The notes: a model not told the origin generated them from the letters alone. Positions 4,077 through 54,476 are shown, counted from the first letter of the stretch. The stretch: DNA of 62,760 nucleotides from Coprothermobacterota bacterium (GCA_026389455.1 JAPLHV010000034.1:1-62760); one strand, 5' to 3'. Program-made: numbers and translations.

Positions 4077-4144
4077 CAGTGGTTAAGTGATTAAGTGGTT
4101 TAGTAGTTTAATAACTACTTAGCCACTTAGCCACTCAATTACTG
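4077..4144. repeat. Inverted octamer array (4 units, 4-nt loop, 4 reverse-complement units)
   Basis: cagtggtt aagtgatt aagtggtt tagtagtt taat aactactt agccactt agccactc aattactg. Confidence 0.85.
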
Positions 4145-4148
4145 CCAA

Positions 4149-4242
4149 CCTGCGGCAACATTATAGCCTGCGGCAACATTATCGTTAATGGGGACAGATT
4201 TTAAATCTGTCCCCATTAACGGCGCTGCCGCAGGCTGTCTAG
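4149..4242. repeat. Composite: 18-bp tandem (x2), 39-bp perfect palindrome (4183-4221), inverted 18-bp motif
   Basis: cctgcggcaacattatag x2; cgttaatggggacagattt-t-aaatctgtccccattaacg; ctgccgcaggctgtctag. Confidence 0.9.
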
Positions 4243-4331
4243 CATTCTTTATTTCATCTTCACATTTCCTTACCCCGCCGTTCACACGAGTCCGCTTTAC
4301 TAAGGAAAATACAGAAAGGAAGCGTAAAAAG

Positions 4332-5516
4332 ATGAAAATACAAAGAACCGTGCTGTGGATCGTCCCGCTGCTGGCAGTCCTGGTACTTGCGGGCTGTGCT
4401 GGTCCCTTCTCGGAAACAATGGGGACAGATTTGAAATCTGTCCCCATTGTTTCGCGGCAACTGGCCACCAACACCAGCACCTCCCTGGCGGAGATCTTCT
4501 CCCCCTCTACAACCAGCGAACCGCAGGGGGTCAACGAGACCACTGAGGATGCCATCACCTTGGCGGTGGGGAAAGTGAACCCTGCTGTCGTCTTCATCGA
4601 CACCACTTACCAAACCGTCCAGCAGGACGATCGCTTCAACTTCCCCGGCTACTACGCCATTCCCCAGCAGCAACAGCCCCAAGAGGGGCAGGGCTCGGGG
4701 GTGATCGTGGACGGCGGGAATGGCTACCTCCTGACCAATAACCATGTGGTAAAGAATGCTGTCGCGATCAAAGTGACCCTCCCCGACGGCCGCACCTTCA
4801 CCGGCAGCGTGGTCGGCGCCGACTCACTTGCCGACATCGCTGTGGTCAAGATCGACGGCGCCAACCTGCCCGAAGCGAAACTGGCCGACAATGCCAATTT
4901 GAAAGTAGGCTCGTGGGCGATCGCCATCGGCAACCCATACGGCTTCGAGAATTCGGTCACGGTGGGGGTCGTCTCCGCCCTAAACCGGACCATCAGCGAC
5001 CCGGACAGCGGCAATCCCCTGATGGACCTAATCCAAACCGACGCTGCCATCAACCCCGGCAACTCCGGGGGCGCCTTGGTCAACATCAACGGTGAGGTGA
5101 TCGGAATTAATACAGCCATCATCGAATCGGCCCAAGGGATCGGTTTCGCCGTGAACATCGACGCCGCCAGCCGCTCTTTCCAAGACATCGTCGCGCACGG
5201 GAAAGTAACCCGAGCATGGATGGGGATCACCTTCGCTGGAGTGACCGAGGAGATCGCCAAGCAATTGAACCTGACCCAGGCTTCCGGCGCTTTGGTCGGC
5301 AGCGTCTCGGTTGGCGGTCCTGCGGCGAAGGCTGGCCTCTTGGCCGATGACGTCATCCAGGCAGCGGACGGAACCCCCATCATCAAGGCCGAGGAGTTGA
5401 GTCAGTTGATCCTCTCCAAGCAAGCCGGCGACGCGCTCACCCTCACCGTCTGGCGCAATGGCCAGACCCTCAGCCTGACGGTGACCCTGGGAGAGATGCC
5501 CAGCCAGATTCAGTAG
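4332..5516 (+). CDS. htrA: HtrA/DegP-family serine protease with one PDZ domain, predicted lipoprotein
   Basis: Lipobox VLAGC, TNNHVV, DIAVVKI, GNSGGAL and a C-terminal PDZ. The start was moved from 4188 to the ATG that begins the signal peptide. Confidence 0.9.
   Translation: MKIQRTVLWIVPLLAVLVLAGCAGPFSETMGTDLKSVPIVSRQLATNTSTSLAEIFSPSTTSEPQGVNETTEDAITLAVGKVNPAVVFIDTTYQTVQQDDRFNFPGYYAIPQQQQPQEGQGSGVIVDGGNGYLLTNNHVVKNAVAIKVTLPDGRTFTGSVVGADSLADIAVVKIDGANLPEAKLADNANLKVGSWAIAIGNPYGFENSVTVGVVSALNRTISDPDSGNPLMDLIQTDAAINPGNSGGALVNINGEVIGINTAIIESAQGIGFAVNIDAASRSFQDIVAHGKVTRAWMGITFAGVTEEIAKQLNLTQASGALVGSVSVGGPAAKAGLLADDVIQAADGTPIIKAEELSQLILSKQAGDALTLTVWRNGQTLSLTVTLGEMPSQIQ
4413..4453. repeat. 41-bp perfect palindrome inside htrA (encodes ETMGTDLKSVPIVS)
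   Basis: gaaacaatggggacagattt-g-aaatctgtccccattgtttc. Confidence 0.9.
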
Positions 5517-5567
5517 GAAAAGACGCCCTGCCGGGGGCTATCATCCTCTCCTTCTACCCTCCTATTT

Positions 5568-5608
5568 CAACCATGGGCTGCCTACGGCAGCCCATGGTTG
5601 TTTCGTTT
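5568..5608 (+). terminator. Rho-independent terminator after htrA
   Basis: 15-bp perfect stem caaccatgggctgcc/ggcagcccatggttg followed by tttcgttt. Confidence 0.75.
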
Positions 5609-5659
5609 GAATCCTTTCGTTTCGTTTTCCAGAGGAGCCAGCCTATTTTGTCAGTTTCC

Positions 5660-5684
5660 GTAGGGGCAGGTTTCAAACCTGCCC
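5660..5684 (+). repeat. GTAG-type REP
   Basis: gtaggggcaggtttcaaacctgccc; identical copy at 31658. Confidence 0.85.
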
Positions 5685-5757
5685 ATATCATCGTTTCGTT
5701 TTCCAGGGGACAACGTGTATATTGAGAGAGCAAAGCGTGAAGAAGGAGGATGCAGCC

Positions 5758-6720
5758 ATGTTGAAGCCAAGACGCTTGCGTCTAGGAGATACGGTCGGGT
5801 TGGTGTCCCCCTCCAGCGGCCCCTGGAAGCGCAGCGAGCTTTGGAGGGGGATCGCCGCGTTGGAGTCGTGGGGGTTTCAGGTGAAGGTGGGGGCGCATGC
5901 TTATGACCGCCACTACGACTATGCGGGCCTCGACGCGGACCGCGCCGCGGACCTGCTCTGGGCTTTCGATCACCCCGGGATCGACGCCGTCTTCTGCAGC
6001 CAGGGGGGGATTGGGGCGGCCCGCCTGCCCCGCCTGCTGGACTTTGACGTGATCCGGGGAAATCCGAAAATCTTCCTTGGCTACAGCGACATCACCGCGC
6101 TGCACCTGGCCATCGGCCGGGAAGCTGATTTGGTGACCTTTCATGGCCCCAGTTTGGCGGGCTTTGATCCGGAATCGATGACGGCCTACAAGAAGGACCT
6201 CCTCCTGCGCGCGCTCACCGGCGATGAGCCGTTGGGGGAGATTAAAATGGCCGATCCCGACAAGTACCTGCTGAAGATCAATGCCGGACGGGTCCAGGGG
6301 TCCCTCGTGGGGGGGAACTTGACGCTGGTTTGCGCCTCCCTGGGAACACCTTGGGAAATCCGCACGGAAGGCTGTATCCTTTTCCTGGAAGAATTAGAGA
6401 CCGAGCCCTGGCAAATGGACCATCTACTCACTCACTTGTTGAACGCGGGAAAGCTAGAGGCCGCCCGGGGCATCCTCATCGGCGAATGCCTGGACTGCGA
6501 GCCTCGCAAGCTGGATCCCGGATCTTTCAACCAACGAAGCCTGGAGGACATCCTCTTCGAGTTGCTGGAGCCGCTGGGGCGCCCGGTCCTCTATGGGCTC
6601 CCTCTGGGCCACACCAAAGACCGCGCGACCTTGCCTTTAGGGGTCGCCGCTACCTTAGACACGGCGGAAGGGTTCTTCCGCATCGATGAAGTCGCGACGA
6701 TAAACGGAAAGGAGAAATGA
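5758..6720 (+). CDS. S66 peptidase (LD-carboxypeptidase/MccF family)
   Basis: GDTVGLVSPSS, QGGIG, GYSDIT nucleophile elbow, GGNLT, FLEE, GHT; GGAGG SD before ATG 5758. Confidence 0.9.
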   Translation: MLKPRRLRLGDTVGLVSPSSGPWKRSELWRGIAALESWGFQVKVGAHAYDRHYDYAGLDADRAADLLWAFDHPGIDAVFCSQGGIGAARLPRLLDFDVIRGNPKIFLGYSDITALHLAIGREADLVTFHGPSLAGFDPESMTAYKKDLLLRALTGDEPLGEIKMADPDKYLLKINAGRVQGSLVGGNLTLVCASLGTPWEIRTEGCILFLEELETEPWQMDHLLTHLLNAGKLEAARGILIGECLDCEPRKLDPGSFNQRSLEDILFELLEPLGRPVLYGLPLGHTKDRATLPLGVAATLDTAEGFFRIDEVATINGKEK

Positions 6721-8918
6721 TGACGCGCGCACTGTGGAAACAAGCAATGGTCTGGTTGTTGGCGCTGGCCCTGATCGGCGGAGGGCTGGGATTGGTTCCC
6801 GGGCAGGCTGTGGCGGAACCGCGATACCTGACCATCGGCACGACCGAGGATCTGGACAGCCTGAACCCCTTCGTAGCTTACGAACGCGCTTCCTTTGAGG
6901 CCTTCCTGCTGATCTACGATTCGCTAGTCTCTTTTGACCGCAATCTGGAACCGCAGGCGTCTTTGGCCCAGAGCTGGGAAAGAAGCGCTGACGACCTGAC
7001 CTGGACCTTCCATTTGCGGTCGGGAGTGAAATGGCACGATGGACAACCTTTCACCTCTCGAGATGTCAAGTTCACATATAACCTGATCCTAGAAACCGGC
7101 CTGGGCTTGAATGCCGAGTTTCTCCGGGGGATCGAGTCGGTGGAGGCTAAAGATGAATTGACCGTGGTCATCAAGACCAGCGAGCCGAAGGCGAACATGC
7201 TCCTGAACCCCACCCCCATCCTACCCGAGCATCTCTGGAAAGACGTGCCCTCCACTGAGTTGGAGATGTACGCCAACGATAACCCAGTGGGCACGGGTCC
7301 ATTCAAGTTCGGTGAATGGAAAAAATCCGAGCGCCTGCGCCTGGATGCCAACCAAGAGTACTTCCGCGGTCCTCCCCGCATGGACGGCGTCTTCTTCTTG
7401 ATCTATGCCAATCGCGACACGATGGCCCAGTCTCTTCTGGTGGGGGAGATCGATGTCGCCCTGAATCTTTTTCCCAGCCAGTTGAAGGGGTTGCAGGGAG
7501 ATCCTGGGATCTGGCTGCACGGCTTCGAGGAAAACGGCTTCACTGAATTGGCTTTCAACTGCTGGACCGACCCCAGCTCCAAGGGGAACCCAGTTTTGCT
7601 GGACAAACGCGTGCGCCAAGCCCTGGAGTGGGCCATCGACAAGCAGGAGATCATTGCCCTCGCCCTGGAAGGAGAAGGCAACCCTGGGACGACCTTGATC
7701 CCGCCGACCGATCCCTTCTGGCATTACCAGCCCACGCCGGGGGAACTGCGTTCGTATGACCCCGCCAAGGCCAATGCCTTGCTGGATGCCGCCGGCTGCA
7801 AAGACATCAATGGCGACAAGATGCGCGAGGATCCATCCGGCAATCCCTTGAAGCTGCGCTTTCTTCTCCGCTCGGAGAACACCCAGGAAGTGAAGGCCGG
7901 GCAAATGATCAAGAGTTACCTGCAGAAGGTCGGCTTGGACACAGAGCTGGAAACGGTGGACGATGGGGCTCTCAATGACCGCATCTTCCAGGGCGCCGAC
8001 TTCGACATGTTCATCTGGGGTTGGGGCGGCGACGTGGATCCCAGCACCCTCTTGAACATATTGACCAGCGGCCAGATCGGTACCAACAACGACTGCTACT
8101 ACGGCAACCCTATCTTCGACGCGCTGGTGGTCAAGCAAGCCACCCTGATCGACCCCAGCTCTCGGCAAGACGCGGTGTGGGAAGCCCAAAGAATCCTCTA
8201 CGAGGACCTTCCCTACTGCATTCTTTGCTACGACACCTCCATCCAGGCGGTGCGCAAGGACAAGGTGGAGGGGATCGTCCCGGTGATCGGCGATGGAGCG
8301 CTTTTCTACGCCAACACGGCCGAGAACTACCTTAGCGCCGCCCCAGCCGGGAGTACTCCTTCGCCGACGCCCACCCCCAGCTCCACCCCTACTGCCTTGG
8401 TTTTCCCTGACCTGGCCGGCCATTGGGCTGCCCCAGCGGTAACCAAGCTGGTCAGCTTGGGCCTGGTCAAAGGATTCCCGGATGGCAGCTTCCGGCCCGA
8501 TGCGCCGATCACCCGGGCCGAGCTGGTGACCATGCTGGTGCGCGCCAAAACCTTGCCGGCCTCTCCAATAGCGGCTGCCTTCAGCGACGCGAATGGCCAT
8601 TGGGCTGCAGCCTCGATCGCTGCCGCAGTCCAAGCCGGGGTCGTCACCGGCTATCCGGATGGAACCTTCCAACCGGACCGCCCAGTTACGCGCGCGGAGG
8701 AAGCGGCCATGATCGTGCGACTGGAGGGCGCCGCAGGCGGGACGCCGGAAGTGCCTTCCTTCGCCGATGTCCCCCTTGAATACTGGGGATTTGGATCCAT
8801 CGAGACCGCCAAGACGATGGGTCTCATCACCGGGTATCCGGATGGGACCTTCCACCCGGATCAAACCAGCACGCGGGGCGAAGCCTGTTCCATGGTCAGC
8901 CGTCTGCCCGGCCTCTAG
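6717..8918 (+). CDS. Family-5 (Opp/Dpp) peptide-binding protein fused to three C-terminal SLH domains
   Basis: Signal peptide, LRSGVKWHDG and GTGPF; PT linker followed by three F.D..GHWA...G..G.PDG.F.PD...TR repeats. Confidence 0.9.
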   Translation: MMTRALWKQAMVWLLALALIGGGLGLVPGQAVAEPRYLTIGTTEDLDSLNPFVAYERASFEAFLLIYDSLVSFDRNLEPQASLAQSWERSADDLTWTFHLRSGVKWHDGQPFTSRDVKFTYNLILETGLGLNAEFLRGIESVEAKDELTVVIKTSEPKANMLLNPTPILPEHLWKDVPSTELEMYANDNPVGTGPFKFGEWKKSERLRLDANQEYFRGPPRMDGVFFLIYANRDTMAQSLLVGEIDVALNLFPSQLKGLQGDPGIWLHGFEENGFTELAFNCWTDPSSKGNPVLLDKRVRQALEWAIDKQEIIALALEGEGNPGTTLIPPTDPFWHYQPTPGELRSYDPAKANALLDAAGCKDINGDKMREDPSGNPLKLRFLLRSENTQEVKAGQMIKSYLQKVGLDTELETVDDGALNDRIFQGADFDMFIWGWGGDVDPSTLLNILTSGQIGTNNDCYYGNPIFDALVVKQATLIDPSSRQDAVWEAQRILYEDLPYCILCYDTSIQAVRKDKVEGIVPVIGDGALFYANTAENYLSAAPAGSTPSPTPTPSSTPTALVFPDLAGHWAAPAVTKLVSLGLVKGFPDGSFRPDAPITRAELVTMLVRAKTLPASPIAAAFSDANGHWAAASIAAAVQAGVVTGYPDGTFQPDRPVTRAEEAAMIVRLEGAAGGTPEVPSFADVPLEYWGFGSIETAKTMGLITGYPDGTFHPDQTSTRGEACSMVSRLPGL

Positions 8919-8965
8919 CCGAACGCCTGCCTAAAGGGAGGCAAGATCATCATGCTTCGCTCAGG

Positions 8966-9934
8966 ATGACCCGCCGCTACTTCTTCAGCAAGCTGTTCCA
9001 AGCCCTGCTGACGATCCTGATCATCCTCGTGATGAACTATTTCCTCTTCCGGGTGATGCCGGGGGATCCGGTCTCGATGTTGGTGCGCAACCCCCGCATG
9101 TCCCCGGAGGCGACGCAGAAGGTGGCCGAGATGTTCGGATTGGACAAGCCCTGGTACCAGCAGTTCGGGATCTATCTGATCAACCTGACCTCGGGCAACC
9201 TCGGAACCTCCTTCATCTACAAGAAACCGGTCGGGGGCATTATCATGGAACGCTTTCTGGCCACTATGCTATTGACCGTAGCGGCTGAAGCGCTGGCCAT
9301 CCTGGGCGGGGCGCTGCTGGGAATTATCGCCGCCTGGAAGAGAGGGAAACGGGTGGATGTGGCCGCCTTGGGCTTTGCCCTGGTGACATACGCCATGCCC
9401 ACCTTCTGGCTGGGAATCCTGATGGTGGCTCTCTTCGCCGTGACACTGCGCTGGTTTCCAACTTCCGGCATGCTCACCCCGACTCTTTCCATGGCCGGAT
9501 TCTGGCAAAGGCTGCCCGATACGCTCTGGCATCTCGTCTTGCCGGGAGTGACCTTGGCCCTGGTGCTACTGGGCGAGTACGCGCTGATCATGCGCAACGC
9601 GCTAATCGACGTGCTGACCGAAGACTACATCACTACCGCTCGAGCCAAGGGAGCGTCAGAAGGACGGGTCCTCCGCCGGCACGCCCTGCCCAATGCAATG
9701 ATCCCGATGGTCACGCTGATCGCCCTGAACCTGGGATTCACCATCACCGGCGCCCTCCAGGTGGAGACAGTCTTTTCCTGGCCCGGCCTGGGCCGGCTGA
9801 TGTATGACGCCCTGGCGGGACGCGACTACCCCTTGCTGCAGGGGATCTTCCTGATAACGGCCATCGCCGTGGTGGGCGCCAACTTCCTCTCCGACCTGAC
9901 CTACCGTTTTCTCGACCCGCGGGTGAAAGAGTAA
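8966..9934 (+). CDS. Opp/Dpp ABC permease (OppB-like)
   Basis: MPGDP, EDYITTARAKG EAA loop, RDYPLLQG. Confidence 0.92.
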   Translation: MTRRYFFSKLFQALLTILIILVMNYFLFRVMPGDPVSMLVRNPRMSPEATQKVAEMFGLDKPWYQQFGIYLINLTSGNLGTSFIYKKPVGGIIMERFLATMLLTVAAEALAILGGALLGIIAAWKRGKRVDVAALGFALVTYAMPTFWLGILMVALFAVTLRWFPTSGMLTPTLSMAGFWQRLPDTLWHLVLPGVTLALVLLGEYALIMRNALIDVLTEDYITTARAKGASEGRVLRRHALPNAMIPMVTLIALNLGFTITGALQVETVFSWPGLGRLMYDALAGRDYPLLQGIFLITAIAVVGANFLSDLTYRFLDPRVKE

Positions 9935-9937
9935 GGA

Positions 9938-10888
9938 ATGGTACACCTTCACTTCCCTTCCATTCGATCAAAGCAGCGCGGGGACAGATTGAAATCTGTC
10001 CCCGGAATCTGTCTCCCGGGTGCGAGGGCAAGGCAACGGAAAGGGTGGCGAGAAAACTGGTCCCTCTTCCGAGCCAACCGGATGGGGATGGCCGGGTTGA
10101 TTCTCTTCCTCTTCTTCGTCTTGGTGGCGATCTTCGGACCCATCCTCTGGCCCTACGATCCATTGGAGTTCGGCTCCCCGGCCGATGTCCTGCAACCGCC
10201 CAGCGCAGCGCACTGGCTGGGGACCGACGACATGGGCCGGGACGTCCTGCTGGGATTGATCGCCGGGAGCCGCGTCTCGTTGATGGTGGGGATCCTGGCC
10301 ACCGTCGTCTCAATGTCGGTGGGCGCCTTTGTCGGTTTGACGGCAGGCTACCTGGGAAAGGGAACGGATGCCGTCCTGATGCGCTTCACCGATGTCTTCC
10401 TGGTGCTTCCCTGGCTTCCCTTGATGCTGATCCTGGCCGCTCTGCTGGGGGCCAGTCTGTGGAACATCATCCTGGTGATCGGCCTGACCGGATGGGCCGG
10501 CACGGCCCGCCTGGTTCGCGCCCAGGCCTTGGCGGTGAAGGAGCGGCCTTTCGTGGAGCGGGCTCGCGCCCTGGGCTCCTCCCGCTGGGGAATCATGGGT
10601 CGCCACGTGCTGCCCAACGTTTTCCCGCTGATCTTCGCCAACACCATCCTTATTGTAGCTGTCTCGATCCTCTCCGAGACCACCCTCAGTTTCCTGGGAA
10701 TGGGCGACAGCACCCGCCCCAGTTGGGGGATGATGCTGCACTTTGCCTTCGCCTCGGGCGCCATCTCCAACGGCGCTTATTGGTTCCTGGTCCCTCCCGG
10801 GCTGTGCGTCCTGCTGGTGGTGTTGGCTTTCACTTTCATGGGGTACGCGCTGGATGAGATTCTCAACCCCAAGCTGAGGAAGCGCTGA
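9938..10888 (+). CDS. Opp/Dpp ABC permease (OppC-like)
   Basis: HWLGTDDMGRD, FVERARALG, PSWG. Confidence 0.9.
   Translation: MVHLHFPSIRSKQRGDRLKSVPGICLPGARARQRKGWRENWSLFRANRMGMAGLILFLFFVLVAIFGPILWPYDPLEFGSPADVLQPPSAAHWLGTDDMGRDVLLGLIAGSRVSLMVGILATVVSMSVGAFVGLTAGYLGKGTDAVLMRFTDVFLVLPWLPLMLILAALLGASLWNIILVIGLTGWAGTARLVRAQALAVKERPFVERARALGSSRWGIMGRHVLPNVFPLIFANTILIVAVSILSETTLSFLGMGDSTRPSWGMMLHFAFASGAISNGAYWFLVPPGLCVLLVVLAFTFMGYALDEILNPKLRKR
9979..10017. repeat. GGGGACAGATT palindrome plus an extra half-site in the oppC 5' region
   Basis: cggggacagatt-ga-aatctgtccccg followed by gaatctgtctccc. Confidence 0.8.
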
Positions 10889-10889
10889 G

Positions 10890-11837
10890 ATGCCACTCCT
10901 GGATGTGCAGGATCTGCACGTCTCTTTCTCCATGCGCCAAGGAATGGTGAGGGCTGTGGATGGGGTCAGCTTCACTCTGGAGGAAGGGGAATCGTTGGGC
11001 TTGGTCGGCGAATCCGGTTGCGGCAAGACCACCGCCGCGCTTTCGCTTCTGCGCCTTCTGCCGCCCAATGGACGAATCGACTCCGGCAAAATCCTCTATC
11101 AGGGACGAGACGTGCTGACTTTCACCGCGGAAGAGTTGCGTCGTTTCCGCTGGAAGGAAATCTCGATCATCTTTCAAGGGGCGATGAACGCCCTCAATCC
11201 GGTGCAGCGGGTAGGGGACCAGATCGCTGAAGCCATTCGCCTGCACCAGCCGGTAAGCGAGAAAGATGCCGGCAAACAGGCCCAAGCGCTGTTGGAAAGG
11301 GTGGAACTGGAAGGGCGGAGGGTAAACGACTATCCCCATGAGTTCAGCGGCGGGCAGCGCCAACGGGTGATGATCGCCATGGCCCTGGCCTGCCGCCCCC
11401 GCATCGTTATCGGGGACGAGCCTACCACTGCCCTCGACGTGATGGTCCAGGCGCAGATCTTCGAGCTGGTGGAGAGCTTGCGCAAAGAGTTGGGAATGGC
11501 CATGATCCTAATCACCCATGACCTCTCCGTGCTGGGCGACACCTGTGATCGGGCAGCGGTGATGTACGCTGGCCAGATTGTGGAGATCGGGCCCATCGAG
11601 ACCCTCTTCCAAACCCCCTGCCACCCCTACGCGCGTTGTCTGCTGCGATCTTTCCCGCGCCTGCAAGGATCTCGTTCGATGGCCGACTCGATTCCGGGCA
11701 CGCCGCCCAACTTGATTGAGGTTCCTCCCGGCTGCCGTTTTCACCCCCGCTGCCCAGAGGTCATGGCCATCTGCTCCCGGGAACAACCGCTTCTCCTGGA
11801 GCGCGGACCGCGCCACAGTGTAGCTTGCCATGGATAG
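10890..11837 (+). CDS. Opp/Dpp ABC ATPase (OppD-like)
   Basis: [22 protein letters not shown]-terminal GCRFHPRC. Confidence 0.93.
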
Positions 11838-11880
11838 AACACCCTGCCGGGGGCTAGATAGAACACCCTGCCGGGGGCTA
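11833..11880. repeat. 24-bp perfect tandem duplication of the 18-bp motif family
   Basis: gatagaacaccctgccgggggcta x2; contains the oppD stop codon. Confidence 0.9.
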
Positions 11881-11898
11881 TCTACCGGAGGGGAATCA

Positions 11899-12891: not shown

Positions 12892-12895
12892 CATC

Positions 12896-15300: not shown

Positions 15301-15384
15301 GGGAATCGCCTCTCGTGTCGCTCCCACTCCTCCCGGCTGCTACAATAGCGGTCAATGTGAGCACAAGAAGATGAGGGGGTTCTT

Positions 15385-16074: not shown

Positions 16075-16217
16075 CCCTCCGAGCGACCTGCGGTCCAAAG
16101 TAAGACCAATCTGCGCTGGAATTTTCCAGAGCCTAGACGGTCCTTTCGCTCTCCTTCGCTCCATTAAAGAGCAGGCGCTATCGTCGCACTGCATAAAAAC
16201 TAAATGGTTCCTTCTCT

Positions 16218-31739: not shown

Positions 31740-31867
31740 GAGTGATTCAGTAATTAAGTGACTAAGTGGCTGAGTAATTAAGTGGTTGAGTAAGATCTAG
31801 ACAGTCCTCGACTCAGAGAAGTGACTTAACCACTTAACCACTTGACCACTAAACCACTTGACCACTG
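31740..31867. repeat. Inverted octamer array (6-7 units, spacer, 5 reverse-complement units)
   Basis: gagtgatt cagtaatt aagtgact aagtggct gagtaatt aagtggtt ... aaccactt aaccactt gaccacta aaccactt gaccactg. Confidence 0.88.
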
Positions 31868-43885: not shown

Positions 43886-43956
43886 GGATTGGCTTTCCAT
43901 CCACATCTTCACGTGGAACAATACGCTCCAACAGGCGTAAAGAGGAATGACCGAGA

Positions 43957-45204: not shown

Positions 45205-45205
45205 G

Positions 45206-45233
45206 GGGATCGGGGATAGTGGATAGGGGATAG
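45206..45233. repeat. Heptamer tandem repeat (STRR-like)
   Basis: ggggatc ggggata gtggata ggggata. Confidence 0.65.
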
Positions 45234-45368
45234 GCTGCTCATCCATGCACTTCGCTCGAGGTCAGGTTTTTGAGGACAAGTGCAGGTAGCCGATAGATGC
45301 CGTGTATACTACAATACTTGTGGATTTTAGATTGCTGATTGGATCGCTTGAAAAGCAAAATGGCTTGC

Positions 45369-45464
45369 GTAGGGGCGGGTTTCAAACCCGCCCCCTGCAT
45401 AGCTTGCGGCAGCACAGCTAGACAGCCTGCGGCAGCACGAGCTAGACAGCCTGCGGCAGCACGA
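45369..45464. repeat. Composite: GTAG REP (45369-45394) plus 24-bp tandem of the 18-bp motif family (45417-45464)
   Basis: gtaggggcgggtttcaaacccgcccc; gctagacagcctgcggcagcacga x2. Confidence 0.88.
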
Positions 45465-45497
45465 AGTTAAGATCACACCATAGAGAGGGTATCCGGA

Positions 45498-47054: not shown

Positions 47055-47063
47055 GGGCGCGCC

Positions 47064-47255
47064 ATGGAGAGCAACGAGAGAATTCCCCAGGAAATTCAGG
47101 TGGTCATTGCTGCCGCCCTAGCCCGCTACCTGAAGGATGACAAGCTGGCCTTCAAAGTAGTTTCCATCAAGCTGGTGCAAACCTCCCAGATCAACCTTTG
47201 GGGATTGACGGGGCGCCAGGAGAACATGCTCGGGACACGCGGCCGCAGGTTATGA
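47064..47255 (+). CDS. Small soluble subunit resembling the C-terminal part of MmdD/OadG
   Basis: VIAAALARY...F.VVSIK...WGLTGRQENM; no TM helix. Confidence 0.7.
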   Translation: MESNERIPQEIQVVIAAALARYLKDDKLAFKVVSIKLVQTSQINLWGLTGRQENMLGTRGRRL

Positions 47256-47419
47256 TGTTGCCGCAGGTTAGCCAAAATAGCCCCCGGCAGCTTGATAGCC
47301 CCCGGCAGCTTGATAGCCCCCGGCAGCTTGATAGCCCCCGGCAGCTTGATAGCCCCCGGCAGCTTGATAGCCCCCGGCAGCTTGATAGCCCCCGGCAGGG
47401 TGTTCTGTCTAGCCGCAGG
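47242..47419. repeat. 18-bp tandem array (6 perfect units plus a partial) with anchor and flanking motif copies
   Basis: cttgatagcccccggcag at 47291-47398 preceded by a 14-nt partial unit; ends ggtgttctgtctagccgcagg; gccgcaggttatgatgtt duplication upstream. Confidence 0.95.
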
Positions 47420-47446
47420 TAGAAGGAAGCGAGGATAGGAAAAGCG

Positions 47447-47887
47447 ATGACCCGTAAGTACGTGATCAAGGTGAACAACAAGCCCTATGAAGTGGAGGTG
47501 ACGGAGGTGGGCCGCACGCCCAACGCCCCCCTCCCCCCTGCCCCGCTGCCCCCAGTCGTCGTCGCCTCCGCACTGCCTGCGCAAAGGGTGAGCATGCCGA
47601 TGCCGGGAGGCCCTCCGCCGCCCCCCACCAGCAAAACCCCAAGCGGATTGACAGCCCCCGGCAGGGCGTTCAGTGAAAAGGTCGTACAGGCGCCGATGAC
47701 CGGCACGATCATCAAAATCCTCTGCCGGGTCGGTCAGGAGGTCAACGAGGGGGACGTGATCCTCAAACTGGAAGCGATGAAGATGGAGACCGAAATGGCC
47801 GCCCCCTTCCCCGGCCGGGTGAAGGAGATACGCGTGGCCGAGCGCCAGAACGTCACCGCCGGCGACGCCCTGGTGGTCATGGAGTGA
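47447..47887 (+). CDS. Biotin carboxyl carrier protein
   Basis: YEVEV N-terminus, Pro-rich linker, EAMKM. Confidence 0.94.
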   Translation: MTRKYVIKVNNKPYEVEVTEVGRTPNAPLPPAPLPPVVVASALPAQRVSMPMPGGPPPPPTSKTPSGLTAPGRAFSEKVVQAPMTGTIIKILCRVGQEVNEGDVILKLEAMKMETEMAAPFPGRVKEIRVAERQNVTAGDALVVME

Positions 47888-47897
47888 GGAGGCCCCG

Positions 47898-49379
47898 ATG
47901 AACCGCACCAACAAACCGTTTGTACACATCACCGATACCGTCTACCGCGACGCCCACCAGTCGCTGATCGCCACCCGCATGCGCACCGAAGATATGGCGC
48001 CGATGATCGAGTACATGGATCAGATGGGTTACTGGTCCTTCGAGATGTGGGGAGGCGCCACCTTCGATTCCATGCTGCGTTTCCTCAACGAGAACCCCTG
48101 GGAACGCATCCGCATCTTCAAAAAGCATTGCCGGAACACTCGCCTGCAGATGCTTCTTCGCGGCCAAAACCTGGTTGGCTACAAGCATTACGCCGACGAC
48201 ATTCTGGAGCGCTTCATCCGCCACGCCGCCGACTTGGGGATCAATGTCTTCCGCGTCTTCGACGCCCTTAACGACATCCGCAACATGGAGAAGGCCATCC
48301 GCGTAGCCAAGTCCACCGGCGCCACCGTGCAGGGCTGCATGAGCTACACCCTCAGCCCGGTGCACTCCATCGACGGCTTTGTGGGATTGGCTAAGGAACT
48401 GAAACAGCTCGGTTGCGACATCATCACCATCAAGGACATGGCCGGCCTGATCTCCCCGGCGTCAGCCCTCGAGCTGGTTTCCAAGCTGAAAAAGCAGGTC
48501 GGGTTGCCCGTCTGTCTTCACTCCCACTGCACCACTGGGATGGCGCCTACCTCCTACTTCAAGGCTGCCGAGGCTGGAGTGGACATCCTCGACTGCGCCC
48601 TCTCGCCCTTCGGCTCCGGAACCTCACAGCCCCCGACCGAGACGATGGTGGAAATGCTGGAGAGCGCCGGCTTCTCGACCGGGGTGGATGCCGGCAAGTT
48701 TCTGGAAGCGGCAGAGTACTTCCAGGAGATCAAGGACTCCATCTACGCTTCCCTCATCACTCCGGTAGCCGAGCGAGTCGATGTCCGCGCCTTGATCTAC
48801 CAGGTGCCCGGTGGGATGCTGACCAACATGGTCTCTCAATTGGAGAAGCAAAACGCTTCGGACAAATTCAAGGCGGTGCTACAGGAGATCCCCAAGGTGC
48901 GAGCCGATTTGGGGTACGTTCCCCTGGTGACCCCCACTTCGCAGATCGTTGGCACCCAGGCCACTATGAACATCCTCTCCGGCGAGCGCTACAAGATTAT
49001 CATCCAGGAGGTCAAAGATCTCTGCAAGGGCCTCTATGGACGGACCCCCGCCCCCATCGACCCCGGATTGATCAAGAAAGCGATCGGCGATGCCGAGCGC
49101 ATCACCGACAGGCCGGCCAACCACATCCCGCCCGACTGGGAGAACTGCAAAGTAGGAATGGCCCCCTACTCCCAGGAGGAAGAGGATATCCTCACCTACG
49201 CCCTCTACCCCAGCGTGGCCAAGGAGTACTTCGAGGCCAAGGCCGACCCGATCAAGTGGAAAGCGCGAGAGGAATCCCTGCGGTTCGGCAAACCCCTCCC
49301 CGACGGCCACCCCCAGCGCCAGTTCATCCTGCGCATCAACGGGGAGGACTATGAGGTGGGGATCACCGAACAGGAATAG
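47898..49379 (+). CDS. Pyruvate/oxaloacetate carboxyltransferase (OadA/transcarboxylase 5S-like, no biotin domain)
   Basis: RDAHQSL, WGGATFD, IKDMAG, HSHCT, VPGGM, LVTPTSQ. Confidence 0.93.
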   Translation: MNRTNKPFVHITDTVYRDAHQSLIATRMRTEDMAPMIEYMDQMGYWSFEMWGGATFDSMLRFLNENPWERIRIFKKHCRNTRLQMLLRGQNLVGYKHYADDILERFIRHAADLGINVFRVFDALNDIRNMEKAIRVAKSTGATVQGCMSYTLSPVHSIDGFVGLAKELKQLGCDIITIKDMAGLISPASALELVSKLKKQVGLPVCLHSHCTTGMAPTSYFKAAEAGVDILDCALSPFGSGTSQPPTETMVEMLESAGFSTGVDAGKFLEAAEYFQEIKDSIYASLITPVAERVDVRALIYQVPGGMLTNMVSQLEKQNASDKFKAVLQEIPKVRADLGYVPLVTPTSQIVGTQATMNILSGERYKIIIQEVKDLCKGLYGRTPAPIDPGLIKKAIGDAERITDRPANHIPPDWENCKVGMAPYSQEEEDILTYALYPSVAKEYFEAKADPIKWKAREESLRFGKPLPDGHPQRQFILRINGEDYEVGITEQE

Positions 49380-49405
49380 GCAGCTCTTCTCTGGATCTGT
49401 AGGCT

Positions 49406-49456
49406 CTTTGGGGGCAGATTTAAATCTGTCCCCAAAGTTTTTGGAAATCTGTCCCC
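49406..49456. repeat. GGGGACAGATTT palindrome (one mismatch) plus an extra half-site
   Basis: ctttgggggcagattt-aaatctgtccccaaag ... ggaaatctgtcccc. Confidence 0.85.
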
Positions 49457-49460
49457 TTGA

Positions 49461-50630
49461 TCAGGGGAAAAGCGCATTCGCCAGGAAACGCTCCAGCACG
49501 CCAGCATCCCGTTCCCATAACCTCAGGTCAATCCATTCCTCTGGTTGATGAGCCTGGGCGATATCCCCCGGCCCGAAGAGGGCGAAAGCTGGAGATCCCG
49601 TTGGGAAGAGTGTCGGAAGGTCGGTACAGTACGTGGCCGCCTCCCATAGCGGACGCTCCCCCCGCACCAGCGTATAGGCGCCGGCCAGCATCTGCAGGAA
49701 GGGATTCTCTAACAGCGTCACCATTGGCCGCTTGTAGCTGATCGTCTCCCAGGAGAAACGGCCCGGCGCCGCTGCCTTGGACCCCTCTTCTTCTAGCGCA
49801 GCGATGATTGACGCTTTGGCCTCCTCGCTGCCCAGGCGGATGTCCAGCTCGGCCTTGGCGCGATCCGGGACAATGTTGACCTGACGACCCCCCTCTATCC
49901 GGCCGACATTGAGCGTGGCCTTTCCCAGGAGAGAAGTGGAGGGCAGCTCCTCGACCTTCGACTGGATCTCCAAGAGGAACCGCGCGCAGGCCATCACTGC
50001 GTTGATCCCTTCGGCGGGGGTGGATCCGTGGGCTTCTTTGCCGAAGAAGGAGGCGCGCAGCCAGAACTCACCGCGCTCCCCTACCAGCACCTGGCCGGCA
50101 GTGGGCTCGGCGATTAAGGTGAAGAGCGCGTCCTCCACCAATCCAGCCTTGGTCATGGCCTCTGCGCCACGATAGCCGTCCTCTTCATCGGCAGACAACA
50201 ACAGGCGCAAGGAGCAGCGAGGCGGACCCTCGCGCCTGGCGCGTTCAGCAACGGCGGCGAAGGCTTCCAGCAACATGGCGACTCCCCCCTTCATATCCGT
50301 CGCTCCCAGCCCGAAAAGTCGATCTCCCACGAGGCGCGGTAGATAGGGATCGGCCTGCCAGCCCTTGGGAGAGGCAGCCCCGCTGTCGCCGCCTGGGCTT
50401 ACCGTATCCAGGTGGCCGCAGAGGAGCAACGCTCCTCCTTCTCGTCCCGGGATCGTGGCAGTCAAGGAGGAACGTCCCGGCGCGTAATCCAACAGAGCGC
50501 TGGGGATGCCTCGTCGATCCAACCAAGCCGCAATCCAAGCAGCGAGAGGGCGCTCGTCTCCCGGTGGGTTGGGGCTGGGGATCGCCACCAAGGAGGAGAT
50601 CAGCTCCCCTCCCCTCCTACGAACTGCCAT
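49461..50630 (-). CDS. M20 peptidase, ArgE/DapE family
   Basis: GHLDTV, GATDMKGG, DEE, AEPT, AHQPEE. Confidence 0.88.
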   Translation of the reverse strand: MAVRRRGGELISSLVAIPSPNPPGDERPLAAWIAAWLDRRGIPSALLDYAPGRSSLTATIPGREGGALLLCGHLDTVSPGGDSGAASPKGWQADPYLPRLVGDRLFGLGATDMKGGVAMLLEAFAAVAERARREGPPRCSLRLLLSADEEDGYRGAEAMTKAGLVEDALFTLIAEPTAGQVLVGERGEFWLRASFFGKEAHGSTPAEGINAVMACARFLLEIQSKVEELPSTSLLGKATLNVGRIEGGRQVNIVPDRAKAELDIRLGSEEAKASIIAALEEEGSKAAAPGRFSWETISYKRPMVTLLENPFLQMLAGAYTLVRGERPLWEAATYCTDLPTLFPTGSPAFALFGPGDIAQAHQPEEWIDLRLWERDAGVLERFLANALFP

Positions 50631-51807
50631 TGCCGAAACCTTCCGGTGGGTTCAGATAGAGTCGGGGGACTTGCTTGCCGATGGCGCAGAGGATCTCATA
50701 GCTGATCGTTCCGATCTTTGCCGCCAACTCGTCAACCGGCAATCCTGGGCCGAAGACAAGCACTTCTTCGCCGGCTTGCACATCACCCAAGGCGGTGACG
50801 TCGGCCATCGTCAAGTCCATGCAAATGGTCCCGATCTGAGGGACCCGCTGACCTCGCAGGATCACCTCAGCCTTGTTGGAGAGAAAGCGGCTGTACCCGT
50901 CGGCGTACCCCACCGGCAAGGTAGCGACGAGCGTTTCCCGGGTGGCAGTGAAGGTACACCCGTAGCTGATGCTGCTCCCGGCTGGGACGCGATTGACCGC
51001 CATCACCCGGGTGGTCAGTTCCATCGCCGGGAGAAGAGGGATGCTGCGCTGGATCTCGGCGGTGGGGTAAACCCCGTACAAGAGAAGACCGGGTCGAACC
51101 ATGTCATAATAGGAATCAGGCAAGTCAAGGGTGGCAGCGCTGTTGGCAAAATGCCTGAGGGGAACTTCGATGCCTTCGCTTCGCAGGGCGGCCAGTACTT
51201 CCTCGAACTTCTCCATCTGCTCGAGGGAGTAGCGCTTGTCCGGCGCGTCGGCTGCGGCGAAGTGGCTGAACAACCCTTCCAGTTCCAGGTGCGGCAGGCG
51301 GGAGATAGCTCGTGCCAGGGGAAGGGCATCCTCCGGTCGAGCGCCGATACGGCCCATCCCGGTGTCCACTTTCAGATGCACCACCGCCTTGCGCCCCTGG
51401 CGGGAAGCAGCTCTATCCAACGCTTCAGCCAGCTCCAGCGTAGCCACGGTTTGGGTGAGTCCCAAGGCGACAACCTGTTCAGCCTCGCTGGGCTCGATCA
51501 GGCCGAAGATCAGGATCGGGCAACGAAACCCTGAGGCTCGCAACGAACGGCCCTCTTCCGGCCGGGTTACGGCCAAGTAGTCAGCCCCTCCAGCCAACAC
51601 CGCCTGGGTGACAGGGACTGCGCCGTGGCCGTAGCCGTCGGCCTTGACCACGGCCATCAGCTTGCAGCGGGATCCGATCTTCTCCTTGATGCGCGCCGTG
51701 TTAGCCCGGATCGCCCCCAGGTCGACGACGGCCCGGGTGGCACGCACCAAGCCGGGCTGCTTCTTGGTGGGTTTGAGTGTGATGGACTCTTCAGAGGTAA
51801 GGGTCAT
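50617..51807 (-). CDS. alr: Alanine racemase
   Basis: AVVKADGYGHG, KVDTGMGRIG, SHFAAAD, VRPG, GYADG, GTICMD, GTISYE. Confidence 0.97.
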   Translation of the reverse strand: MTLTSEESITLKPTKKQPGLVRATRAVVDLGAIRANTARIKEKIGSRCKLMAVVKADGYGHGAVPVTQAVLAGGADYLAVTRPEEGRSLRASGFRCPILIFGLIEPSEAEQVVALGLTQTVATLELAEALDRAASRQGRKAVVHLKVDTGMGRIGARPEDALPLARAISRLPHLELEGLFSHFAAADAPDKRYSLEQMEKFEEVLAALRSEGIEVPLRHFANSAATLDLPDSYYDMVRPGLLLYGVYPTAEIQRSIPLLPAMELTTRVMAVNRVPAGSSISYGCTFTATRETLVATLPVGYADGYSRFLSNKAEVILRGQRVPQIGTICMDLTMADVTALGDVQAGEEVLVFGPGLPVDELAAKIGTISYEILCAIGKQVPRLYLNPPEGFGNGSS

Positions 51808-51808
51808 C

Positions 51809-52369
51809 TCAGTCGTAGCGCTCCTCTTTCCAGGGGTCGGCGGAATTGGAGTAACCGCGCGTTTCCCAATACCCCAGCATCTCCTCTGCCAGGAAGCGGA
51901 TCACGCGCAGCCATTTGATCGCCTTGTAGGCATATTTCCCGGGCACGAAAAACCGCAGTGGGCCTCCATTGGAGGGTGGAATGGGCGACCCGTTCAGCTT
52001 CCAACTGATGATAGCCGGTTCCTTGCGCAGGTAATCCAAGGGGAGGTTGGTGGAGTAGAGGCCTTCCGCTTGGAATAATACATGAAGGGCTTCCGGCTTG
52101 GGCTGAACCAATTCCAGCAAGCGGGCGAAAGTCAAACCGCCCATCCGCAGATCGAAGGCGCTCCATCCGGTTACGCAGTGGAAATCACCCACCAGCAGCT
52201 CATCGAAGGCACTCTTCAATTGGGGCAATGTCCAAAGGACGGGTGTCTCGATCAAGCCCTCCACCTTCAGCGTCCAAGCCCCAAGGGGGAGTGAGGGGAT
52301 GGGGCTCTCGATATGCAGTGGGATCAGCGCCTTGGAAAAGCGCTGGTTGGGGGGCATCCGTTCTTTCAT
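51809..52369 (-). CDS. Sulfite-oxidase-family molybdopterin-binding protein (TM0442/MsrP-like short form)
   Basis: DFHCVTGWS, YSTNLPL, GGPLRFFVPGKYAYKAIKW, GYWETRGY; ATG 52369 overlaps the HAD stop. Confidence 0.88.
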   Translation of the reverse strand: MKERMPPNQRFSKALIPLHIESPIPSLPLGAWTLKVEGLIETPVLWTLPQLKSAFDELLVGDFHCVTGWSAFDLRMGGLTFARLLELVQPKPEALHVLFQAEGLYSTNLPLDYLRKEPAIISWKLNGSPIPPSNGGPLRFFVPGKYAYKAIKWLRVIRFLAEEMLGYWETRGYSNSADPWKEERYD

Positions 52370-53082
52370 TCCAGTATCTCCCTTCTCAATAATTCGACGA
52401 GATCGCGCAGGACATGCGGCGCCTCGGGGTAACGACCTCTCCGGTCCACCAAGTAGGGTTGCATCCCCACCCCTTGCGCTCCCTCCACATCCTCCTCGGG
52501 CATATCGCCGACATAGACGCACTGCTCGGCAGTCAAGCCGGTCATCTCCAGCGCCAAGCGAAAGGGAAGGGGGGAGGGCTTGATGGCCGGGGCGTCTTCG
52601 CGTGCGATTACAGCCGTGAAGAACGAAGTGAGCTGGAAGGAAGCCAGCTTCTGCCGGACCCCCTCGCCGGGGCGGGAGGAGATGAGAGCCAAGGTGCAAC
52701 CATCCGAGAATAGCCGCTGCAGCACGGGTCGAGTCTCGGGGTAGAGACGATCCCCTTCCCGGCGGTCCATCTCCGCGCGCAGGCGCCCGGCCAGATCGGT
52801 CAGATCCAACCCGAGGGAACCTCTCTCGTCCAGTCCCAGGCACTGGAAGATCCGTCCGGCGAAAGCACGCCAGATCTCTTCCCCCGAATTGAGACGAAAG
52901 CTTGATTGACGGTACCATTCCCGGGCGGCATAGTAGGCACTGTAGACCTCTTCCAGGGAATAGTAGAAGCCCAACCGGCCCATCGTCTGATAGAAATCCT
53001 CTTCCGGGGCGCGGAGCAAGGTTCCATCCATGTCGAAAAAATAGCCGCGGTGTTTCCAGAAGCTCGTCGTAATGTGGTTCAT
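52366..53082 (-). CDS. HAD-family hydrolase
   Basis: FDMDGTL, ISS, KP, VGDMPEEDV. Confidence 0.9.
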   Translation of the reverse strand: MNHITTSFWKHRGYFFDMDGTLLRAPEEDFYQTMGRLGFYYSLEEVYSAYYAAREWYRQSSFRLNSGEEIWRAFAGRIFQCLGLDERGSLGLDLTDLAGRLRAEMDRREGDRLYPETRPVLQRLFSDGCTLALISSRPGEGVRQKLASFQLTSFFTAVIAREDAPAIKPSPLPFRLALEMTGLTAEQCVYVGDMPEEDVEGAQGVGMQPYLVDRRGRYPEAPHVLRDLVELLRREILE

Positions 53083-53148
53083 TTCAATGACTCCCTAGTA
53101 TACCCAACTTGCGGGAATTCTTCTCGTTGGCGCAACATCACAGCTCGC

Positions 53149-53250
53149 GAAGGGGCGTCGCATGCGTCGCCCCTACCAGCTCCCGGCAGCTCGATAGCCC
53201 CCGGCAGCTCGATAGCTCCCGGCAGCTCGATAGCTCCCGGCAGGGGAGTT
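53149..53250. repeat. Composite: GTAG REP on the minus strand (53149-53176) plus variant 18-bp array (53178-53243)
   Basis: gaaggggcgtcgcatgcgtcgcccctac; ctcgatagcycccggcag x3 plus a partial, ending gggagttc. Confidence 0.88.
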
Positions 53251-53400
53251 CTGTGTCGCGATCGGTAAAGTCGGAGAAGGGTTCATGACCGGTTAGACGG
53301 GGGGAGGCAGTGTGAATGCCTGAGCCTCTGAAACTCCTCCCCTCCCGCCTGAGCCACAGCAGCGACTGTTGCGACGTTCTGATAGAATACCTTCGGAAAA

Positions 53401-54387
53401 ATGCTGGCCCTTGTGATCGTGATCATTGGCGTTGCCTTGGTCTTCGATTTCCTCAACGGTTTTCACGACGCTGCGAACTCTATCGCCACGATCGTCTCCA
53501 CCCGGGTGCTGACTCCACGCTTAGCGGTGATCTGGGCGGCTTTCTTCAATTTCGTGGCGGCCTTCACCTTCGGCACCGGGGTGGCGCACACCATCGGCGC
53601 AGGGCTGGTCGATATCGCCAGCACCGATGTCTACGTGATCCTGGCCGGCCTCTTGGGGGCCATTTTCTGGAATCTGCTGACCTGGTGGCTGGGCTTGCCG
53701 ATCTCCTCCTCGCACGCCTTGATCGGCGGGTATGCTGGCGCGGCGGTGATCAAATCCGGCTTCTCGGTATTGATCCTGAGCGGGTGGTTGAAAGTGCTGG
53801 CTTTCATCATCATCTCCCCCCTCATCGGCCTGATCTTGGGCTACAGCTTCATGCTCTTCATCTTTTGGCTTTATCGCAAACGAAGCGCCTACCGCGTCGA
53901 CCACACCTTTCGTCGCCTGCAACTGGTATCAGCCGCGGCCTATTCCTTGGGCCACGGTACCAACGATGCCCAAAAAACGATGGGGATCATCGCTATGGTT
54001 CTGTATACATCTGGCTACCTACAGACCTACGACATCCCCATCTACGTGATCTTGATGTGCCACGCTGCCATCGCTTTGGGGACTCTCTCGGGAGGTTGGC
54101 GCATCGTCAAGACGCTGGGCAGTAAGATCACCAAGCTGCAGCCGGTGGGCGGGTTTGCCGCTGAGACAGCAGGGGCCATTACCATCATCGGCTCCTCCCT
54201 GCTGGGCATCCCCGTCTCCACCACCCAAACCATCACCGGAGCAATTTTAGGCGTAGGCTCAGCTCGCCGAGTCAAGTCGGTCCACTGGGGGGTGGCTCGC
54301 TCCATCGTCTGGGCCTGGGTCTTCACCATCCCGGTGGCAGCCGGCGTTGGCGCCTTGGCTTACCTGGTGATTCGACTGTTCATCTAG
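53401..54387 (+). CDS. pit: Inorganic phosphate transporter (PiT family)
   Basis: NGFHDAANSIAT, GHGTNDAQK, PVSTT. Confidence 0.95.
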   Translation: MLALVIVIIGVALVFDFLNGFHDAANSIATIVSTRVLTPRLAVIWAAFFNFVAAFTFGTGVAHTIGAGLVDIASTDVYVILAGLLGAIFWNLLTWWLGLPISSSHALIGGYAGAAVIKSGFSVLILSGWLKVLAFIIISPLIGLILGYSFMLFIFWLYRKRSAYRVDHTFRRLQLVSAAAYSLGHGTNDAQKTMGIIAMVLYTSGYLQTYDIPIYVILMCHAAIALGTLSGGWRIVKTLGSKITKLQPVGGFAAETAGAITIIGSSLLGIPVSTTQTITGAILGVGSARRVKSVHWGVARSIVWAWVFTIPVAAGVGALAYLVIRLFI

Positions 54388-54476
54388 TGATCAAGTAATT
54401 TAGTAATTAAGTGATCAAGTAATCAAGTAGTTACTTAACTACTAAACCACTGAACTACTTACCTACTGCCCCACTG
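54385..54476. repeat. Inverted octamer array between convergent pit and DUF47 (probably also a bidirectional terminator)
   Basis: tagtgatc aagtaatt tagtaatt aagtgatc aagtaatc aagtagtt actt aactacta aaccactg aactactt acctactg ccccactg. Confidence 0.88.

Follow-up and report, generated by a model that had tools for sequence, protein, structure and literature searches.

Phased inverted octamer arrays dispersed through one Coprothermobacterota genus, with one pair enclosing a 23S rRNA-intervening-sequence-type gene

The stretch of DNA analysed here (the window) comprises 62,760 nt of a Coprothermobacterota bacterium (GCA_026389455.1 JAPLHV010000034.1:1-62760; the source genome is called G000) and bears three loci built of imperfect 8-bp repeats. 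Each one of them consists of an array of the octamer AGTRRYTN on the + strand, followed by an array of the same octamer on the - strand, and direct reading showed that the 8-base phase is strictly kept. An earlier note on this DNA had described the three loci and their strict phase; they were found where it had placed them, to within one base, and the flanking genes bore out the three gene contexts that it had assigned. Locus 1 lies between the divergent genes of an ATP-binding cassette (ABC) transporter (-) and HtrA (+), locus 2 between the co-directional genes of PPK2 (+) and methylmalonyl-CoA mutase (+), and locus 3 between the convergent genes of PiT (+) and DUF47 (-). The coordinates of the arrays, together with a solitary half-array that the note had not mentioned, are listed in Table 1.

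Table 1. Octamer arrays and associated features in the window and at the gene-bearing locus on contig C22 of G000
Feature	Position	Strand	Units, sequence or remark
Solitary half-array	3994..4033	+	5 units, TGTAATTA AGTAGTCA AGTAGTTT AGTGATCT AGTCAGGA; no adjoining inverted partner
18-mer repeat family copies	4034..4077		ACACCCTACCGGGGGCTGTCTAGCCGCAGGCTGTCT; directly abutting the locus 1 left arm
Locus 1, left arm	4078-4109	+	4 units, AGTGGTTA AGTGATTA AGTGGTTT AGTAGTTT
Locus 1, left arm with degenerate fifth unit	4078..4117	+	AATAACTA
Locus 1, right arm	4112-4143	-	4 units, read on the - strand, AGTAATTG AGTGGCTA AGTGGCTA AGTAGTTA
Locus 2, left arm	31741-31796	+	7 units; the innermost is the recurrent unit AGTAAGAT
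Locus 2, loop	31797..31818		22 nt, CTAGACAGTCCTCGACTCAGAG
Locus 2, right arm	31819-31866	-	6 units
Locus 3, left arm	54386-54433	+	6 units
Locus 3, right arm	54428-54475	-	6 units
C22, left arm	G000:C22 9002-9073	+	9 units, same octamer as the window loci
C22, PF05635 '23S rRNA-intervening sequence protein' gene	G000:C22 9094-9450	-	118 aa, E 3e-36
C22, right arm	G000:C22 9488-9527	-	5 units, same octamer as the window loci

No loop separates the arms of locus 1, and the loop is also absent from locus 3, where the two innermost units share a 6 nt overlap; a motif similar to the loop of locus 2 follows left arms at G000:C143. The right arm of locus 2 ends 24 nt from the mutase ATG (31891), just 5' of the mutase GGAGG, and the right arm of locus 3 stops 8 nt short of the convergent DUF47 stop. 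At the other edge of locus 3, the TAG stop codon of PiT (54385-54387) overlaps the first unit. Several arrays of the genome likewise begin at or within a stop codon (locus 3 and the C22 locus described below) or end 13-25 nt 5' of a start codon (locus 2 and C46:31253). The octamer unit carries stop codons in all three frames, which matters for annotation, because through these stops the arrays set or truncate gene ends, as in the PiT gene and in a sigma-54-dependent regulator gene.

When arrays were defined as AGT recurring at period 8 in at least 4 units, the source genome (2.63 Mb in 263 contigs, 57.6% G+C) contained 64 arrays, with 414 units, at 37 loci. Control periods of 6, 7, 9 and 10 gave 0, 1, 2 and 0 arrays in the same genome, a 3-unit pattern allowing at most one mismatch matched the window 17 times and none of 100 shuffles, and a reversed-pattern control gave no match in 41 genomes. 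Twenty-two pairs of adjacent arrays had the +/- order and none had the -/+ order. The commonest units were AGTGGTT (82), AGTAGTT (58), AGTAATT (41) and AGTGATT (39); the AGT core was invariant, positions 4-7 varied nearly always from purine to purine or from pyrimidine to pyrimidine, and the usual arm had 4-6 units. The arrays were situated almost exclusively between genes of all orientation classes. At 36 of the 37 loci no open reading frame (ORF) was present, the loops being 0-120 nt long or occupied by other repeats; the remaining locus, on contig C22, was loaded.

The earlier note had suggested that the three loci may be empty versions of an element whose cargo gene sits between the two arms. 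A filled copy does exist, so that the refuting outcome set out in the note, which included a lack of filled copies in this or related genomes, did not occur: the arms at C22 enclose a PF05635 gene of the four-helix-bundle type (Table 1), and the congener G001 has the same filled locus with a longer arm. The cassette, of about 525 bp, occupies the entire gap between the sigma-54-dependent regulator and a convergent gene; the stop codon of the regulator (G000:C22 9004-9006) lies inside the first octamer unit, and the regulator has lost its last codon relative to other genera. The corresponding gap in four other genera of the family measures 15-120 bp and contains neither gene nor array, and the site was not recovered in the congeners G002 or G003, the contig of the latter ending inside the regulator gene. 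The exact C22 protein was found on 15 public contigs, with the same neighbours at all 10 places listed; runs SRR20698650, ERR11260138 and ERR15302206 are among the sources of contigs with the identical cassette. In the minimum-energy fold of the sense strand of the cassette, the two arms formed a terminal stem of about 40 nt, and the duplex of the arms reached -44 kcal/mol on the sense strand of the gene vs -35.5 kcal/mol on the other. The gene is intact in G000 and G001, with a ratio of nonsynonymous to synonymous substitution rates (dN/dS) of 0.43, indicating relaxed constraint, vs 0.10 for the neighbouring regulator. The closest solved structure to the C22 protein is 2GSC (XCC0516), deposited with five chains.

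The other PF05635 gene of the two in G000 (G000:C229 1-175) is cut by the contig end and shares an overlap with the terminal part of a gene that resembles hsdS (type I restriction specificity); on its visible side there were no repeat arms. The loops of the three window loci and of the other 33 ORF-less loci contained no PF05635 gene, and in G002 and G003, both incomplete genomes, arrays were present and the four-helix-bundle gene was not detected. The cargo types named in the note were found in part: a four-helix bundle is enclosed at C22, and no GxxExxY (PF13366) gene was found in the genus. There was also no sign that the 36 ORF-less loci had ever held cargo.

The 80 loci closest to the C22 protein belonged to many phyla, their proteins being 55-66% identical to it. 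For more than half of the 79 scorable loci, as read off a flank-comparison table, the best inverted flank match was an array of the heptamer CAGGAGT/CAGAAGT/CAGAATT. In a sister genus, the genome G005 has a single four-helix-bundle gene with inverted ATAGTGG heptamers, a unit that occurred nowhere else in this genome. The suggestion of the note that such genes often have short-repeat flanks therefore holds. Repeat arms are hence usual for the four-helix-bundle gene family; what is special to this genus is that the arm unit has spread to dozens of loci without an ORF. Among the close relatives of the C22 protein (L047-L126), inverted CAGGAGT/CAGAAGT heptamer flanks occur from cyanobacteria to Acidobacteria and Planctomycetes; upstream of the gene the arm consists of consecutive AGGAG cores resembling Shine-Dalgarno sequences, and the arm on the other side is complementary to it. 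Among the metagenome matches listed, ORF-less convergent pairs of AGTGRTT octamers with loops of about 50-145 nt were found in L141/L188, L162, L182, L198 and L130. The contigs bearing them are unrelated and G+C-rich, and L141 and L188 share one loop of about 117 nt; these matches included no new loaded copy and many unrelated microsatellites.

Among 41 relatives searched, the arrays were confined to the 4 genomes of this genus, and 14 sites were compared with the three congeners G001, G002 and G003. Unit number differed between congeners at each of the three window loci: G003 lacks one unit at locus 1, where the right arm of G001 has nine units, and at locus 3, G001 has about 3+3 units. The locus 1 arrays of G000 and G003 are 85% identical, and the adjacent ABC gene is 99.1% identical. 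Elsewhere, C210:2190 has 7+13 units in G000 vs about 4+4 in G001, the array at the C174 site is absent in G001, and a short unrelated sequence stands in place of the arrays C210:12324 and C46:31253 in G003. A composite of about 255 bp at C167 has a clean empty site in G003 (...GGGCAG/ATTCTGC..., the slash marking the junction). Neither this empty/filled pair nor the remaining polymorphic sites had a target-site duplication. At C167 the insertion seems to have been precise and 3' of CAG, and at other sites it seems to have been accompanied by deletion. At C259:58266-58363 a hairpin replaces 135 bp (codons 70-114) of a cysteine-rich (CxxCxxCxxxC) ORF of 352 aa, which is intact in G003 (L008, G003:C64) and split into two fragments in G000; of all the findings, this split gene speaks most clearly against the arrays being kept for the benefit of the host.

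In the G003 orthologue of locus 3 (L023, G003:C105), an insertion sequence (IS) lies inside the array after four units. It has its own ends (end GGCGCTGTGGGTT, transposase start MRDIDLYLQILGIEA), and octamer flanks are missing from the two copies of it found in G000, which lie at the ends of contigs C79 and C212. We considered this insert as a possible cargo and rejected it as an ordinary IS. The large gaps between arms at C7 and C143 were rejected as cargo too; they are mosaics of other small repeats without an ORF.

A core of the 18-mer repeat family that abuts locus 1 was found at most 60 bp from 19 of the 37 loci, vs 3.1 +/- 1.7 for random intergenic points. Half of the arrays thus belong, as modules, to larger composites with this family, which the model of the note does not include. 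One subfamily of composites (C167, C210:16684, C215, C63, C186, C174, C60 and C46:28726, with C210:24316 similar by eye) has unrelated flanks and a left border, ...CCCTGCCGGGGGCT(A/G)TCA, that belongs to this 18-mer family. One of its arms is G-rich (AGTGGTTT/AGTGATTA) and the other A-rich (AGTAATTA/AGTAGGTA), and the right border is often TAATWATYCATG, continuing in C167 and C215 as CTGCCGCAGGCTG. The inner 66 bp or so are near-identical in C167, C210:16684, C215 and C63, suggesting that whole hairpins were copied. These four loci have the left border ...CCCTGCCGGGGGCTATCA in common, and C167 and C215 also the right border TAATTATTCATGCTGCCGCAGGCTG, beyond which the flanks are unrelated. In another region, G000:C46 25449-25630, about nine tandem 20-mers (TTTGTCATCTCGACCGAAC/GT) lie between a 17+8-unit octamer hairpin and another 4-unit - array.

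As RNA, locus 1 folded at -30.9 kcal/mol (z -7.4) on the + strand and -25.4 kcal/mol (z -5.4) on the - strand, and locus 2 at -41.6 (z -4.7) and -46.9 kcal/mol (z -5.5), respectively. The + strand of locus 3 folded poorly (-16.3 kcal/mol, z -1.8) and its - strand well (-33.9 kcal/mol, z -5.6), so that its hairpin is stable solely as - strand RNA. Folds of the + strand as DNA were far weaker (locus 1, -13.3 kcal/mol, z -5.0; locus 2, -17.0, z -2.4; locus 3, -9.9, z -2.4). The arrays hence fold as hairpins, as the note had proposed, and these are imperfect: 582 of 825 arm positions (70.5%) are Watson-Crick paired. Transition-type mismatches, which give a G.U pair on one strand and A.C on the other, account for 158 of the 825 positions (19%) and transversion-type mismatches for 85, the former being 65% of all mismatches.

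According to gene calls made in the present analysis, the 36 classifiable loci comprised 26 between co-directional, 6 between divergent and 4 between convergent genes, which matches the genome-wide intergenic mix of 73%, 14% and 13%. At the co-directional loci, the strand that folded better coincided with the sense strand in only about one case out of two. There was no T-tract after the arrays and no terminator-like or promoter-like call over any of the three window arrays. An intrinsic (Rho-independent) terminator was rejected on account of the AT-rich stems, the missing T-tract, the six loci between divergent genes and the background context mix; the absence of terminator-like calls and this mix support the statement of the note that the loci are not only terminators. 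A search of the window against Rfam gave no match at the gathering threshold, no rRNA and no Gut-1-type match, and at E <= 1 merely chance miRNA-like hairpin matches, one of them covering locus 1. Clustered regularly interspaced short palindromic repeats (CRISPR) were rejected because the octamers are contiguous and have no spacers, vs repeats of about 24-48 nt with unique spacers. The reverse-complement unit TTAACCACT agrees by eye with the DnaA box, TTATCCACA, at 7 of 9 positions, and this likeness was judged too weak.

Among the systems already described, the ORF-bearing intervening sequences (IVS) of 23S rRNA are the closest published design. The IVS of Coxiella burnetii has a 28-bp stem with an S23p ORF in its loop, is excised by RNase III and varies in the number of its heptamer repeats (PMC4990558, Warrier et al. 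2016). The IVS of C. burnetii and Leptospira correspond to the C22 cassette, with a PF05635 ORF in the loop of a stem and repeat arms, whereas the window loci share the arms only; terminal inverted repeats that would close a long stem are predicted for both the cassette and the window hairpins. In contrast to the octamer loci, all of which lie between protein-coding genes, the IVS insert in helix 25 or 45 of the rRNA. Their unit has 7 nt instead of 8, and about 36 dispersed ORF-less copies are found only here.

The heptanucleotide repeats of Xanthomonas and Nostoc (Rehm et al. 2015, PMC4692102) are, like the octamers, short tandem units of variable number, dispersed between genes and specific to lineages. 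Unlike them, the arrays of this genus come in convergent inverted pairs, one of which has a gene inside, and their AT-rich octamer is unable to form a G-quadruplex. Neither the inverted pairing nor the loaded copy is part of what PMC4692102 describes for dispersed heptamers. The repetitive extragenic palindromic (REP) sequences of the REPIN-RAYT type (Bertels and Rainey 2011, PMC3116915) resemble the octamer family in that inverted intergenic hairpin doublets far outnumber the copy that bears a gene between its two halves. They differ from it in that the octamer arms enclose a gene other than a Y1 transposase and are tandem arrays, not single palindromes; REP/REPIN-RAYT membership was rejected because the Y1 genes examined were flanked by other repeats. 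A miniature inverted-repeat transposable element (MITE) was likewise rejected, as no target-site duplication and no IS with octamer ends were found. The short tandemly repeated repetitive (STRR) heptamers of cyanobacteria are comparable dispersed short tandem repeats, and the octamer arrays share with them head-to-tail short units, many intergenic loci and polymorphism in unit number. The small dispersed repeats (SDR) of Nostocaceae are very small nesting repeats that build intergenic mosaics, like the octamer hairpins joined to or filled by the 18-mer family; they are reportedly single units of 21-27 nt and not phased inverted octamer arrays.

With a moderate degree of confidence, we favour the explanation that the window loci belong, without an ORF of their own, to a dispersed family that is specific to the genus and has the form (AGTRRYTN)n followed by (NARYYACT)m. 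These loci resemble the arms of IVS-type cassettes and would behave as selfish or neutral modules and not as conserved regulatory sites. The ORF-less arrays would be the 'arms-only' form of the PF05635 cassette type, multiplied in this genus, each one having two inverted short-tandem-repeat arms able to close a long imperfect stem. When transcribed, they would fold into imperfect double-stranded RNA stems of 30-60 bp, which RNase III would probably cut, by analogy with the IVS, so that the flanking transcripts might be uncoupled or trimmed. From one congener to another, arrays are gained, lost or replaced, in no case with a target-site duplication, and they often travel joined to the 18-mer repeat family. 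Their unit number changes as well, and the higher-order periods of 16 and 24 bp fit replication slippage. The copying step could be the work of a trans-acting transposase that depends on hairpins in single-strand DNA (the genome has about ten Y1/HUH transposase-like genes, PF01797 matches) or could be repair-associated copying from other arrays. The Y1 genes were rejected as the loaded form, because the 4 that were examined were flanked by another inverted repeat (of the GGGGACAGATTT type) and there was no octamer array on their contigs. A reverse transcriptase as the maker of the arrays was ruled out by the lack of PF00078 in the four genus genomes.

It seems rather unlikely that the four-helix-bundle cassette and the ORF-less hairpins are one system, in which the PF05635 protein would recognise the unit in single-stranded DNA or RNA and promote the copying of arm pairs, the 36 ORF-less loci being non-autonomous. 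If this were true, the genus would have caught a burst of an element class from which the 23S rRNA IVS also arose, as did the heptamer and octamer repeats that are dispersed in many bacteria. The observation made in the earlier note is confirmed and its interpretation is partly supported: a copy filled with a four-helix-bundle gene was found, and the common descent of the empty and filled forms, or their movement as one element, is putative.

Several results weigh against the explanation that we favour. No gene remnant was found at any of the 36 ORF-less loci, and there is only one loaded copy. The C22 arms are made of the local octamer and not of the heptamer of the nearest protein relatives; either this gene inserted into a hairpin that was already there or its original arms gave way to others, and it may be no more than a gene that landed among local repeats or acquired them. 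To our knowledge, the four-helix-bundle protein is not a known enzyme. The loops that contain other repeats (C7 and C143) and the IS in the G003 locus 3 may mean that the arrays are insertion hot spots and not emptied carriers. The movement of arrays was deduced from genome comparisons only and was not directly observed. All the genus genomes are incomplete metagenome-assembled genomes (74-89% complete), which makes the census a minimum and the absences uncertain. Finally, the arms of one locus paired no better than arms taken from different loci (Watson-Crick fraction 0.714 for same-locus vs 0.757 for other-locus arms; Mann-Whitney p = 0.99 for same-locus greater), and the hairpin potential therefore has its source in the shared unit, neither co-evolution within a locus nor recent fold-back duplication being responsible for it. 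The G.U pairs, 59 on the sense vs 70 on the antisense strand, had no sense-strand bias. With no complementarity specific to a locus, about 70% Watson-Crick pairing and no such bias, selection for an RNA stem is not demonstrated by the pairing data.

This bears on the idea that the arrays are selected functional RNA elements, recruited at many loci as long stems for the termination, insulation or stabilisation of transcripts or as RNase III processing sites between cistrons. Such a role would agree with the strong predicted RNA folds (z -4.7 to -7.4), with array edges at stop codons (locus 3 and C22) or 13-25 nt before starts (locus 2 and C46:31253), with the 65% of mismatches that are of the transition type and leave a G.U pair on one strand, and with the fact that IVS stems are genuine RNase III substrates (PMC4990558). 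We nevertheless consider it unlikely: the three window loci lack a T-tract and terminator-like calls, the contexts are those of the genomic background, with six loci between divergent genes, the sense strand folds better than the antisense strand at only about half of the loci between co-directional genes, there is no covariation between arms within a locus, and arrays are missing at orthologous sites of congeners, one of them even disrupting a gene. The arrays could instead be putative directional binding sites for an octamer-recognising protein, the prime candidate being the four-helix-bundle protein as a pentamer, so that the gene and the arrays would form one system. The invariant AGT core, next to which positions 4-7 vary by transitions alone, the strictly convergent polarity, the typical arm of 4-6 units set beside the five-chain assembly in 2GSC, the unit arrays that flank the PF05635 family across phyla and the similar AGTGRTT pairs in unrelated metagenome contigs all point this way. 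On the other side, close relatives of the C22 protein carry a different unit (CAGGAGT), an 8-bp period sets successive sites on different faces of B-DNA, the incomplete genomes G002 and G003 have arrays with no four-helix-bundle gene detected, and that gene is under relaxed constraint (dN/dS 0.43); we regard this role as quite improbable.

The arrays could also be scars of break repair, in which both 3' ends would have been extended with octamers, either copied from other arrays or added by some polymerase, and then joined at AGT/ACT microhomology. Such a process would yield convergent arms, deletions and no target duplication. Sequence was indeed replaced, and not simply interrupted, at C259 (135 bp lost), C46:31253 and C210:12324; the arms are unequal and non-cognate, the centres are short AGT...ACT palindromes or captured filler, and target-site duplication was seen nowhere. 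The nearly clean empty site at C167, the lack of a reverse transcriptase in the four genomes and the four loci with a near-identical inner segment and defined borders, which fit the copying of whole elements better, make this origin very improbable.

The four-helix-bundle 'IVS proteins' are a very large family for which we know of no function, and we are likewise aware of no explanation yet for the dispersed 7-8-nt repeats of bacteria. The genus combines a multiplied arm repeat, one loaded cassette with the same unit, and filled, empty, resized and gene-disrupting alleles in close genomes, and so makes the movement of arms, the cutting of stems by RNase III and the binding of the protein to the unit testable.

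Two other kinds of repeats were observed in the window. The loose core patterns of the 18-mer family gave 1,369 matches in the genome; perfect tandem arrays of this family (ATAGCCCCCGGCAGCTTG x6.8 and CTTGATAGCCCCCGGCAG x5) and related 18-24-mers lie at window positions 47277-47398, 61781-61870, 53178-53243 and 45401-45464. A perfect 39-bp palindrome, CGTTAATGGGGACAGATTTTAAATCTGTCCCCATTAACG, is located at 4183-4221, and its halves correspond to the inverted repeats (GGGGACAGATTT ... ATCTGTCCCC) around a Y1-transposase-like gene at G000:C153. The palindrome and these repeats look like a REPIN/RAYT-type pair that is separate from the octamer arrays.

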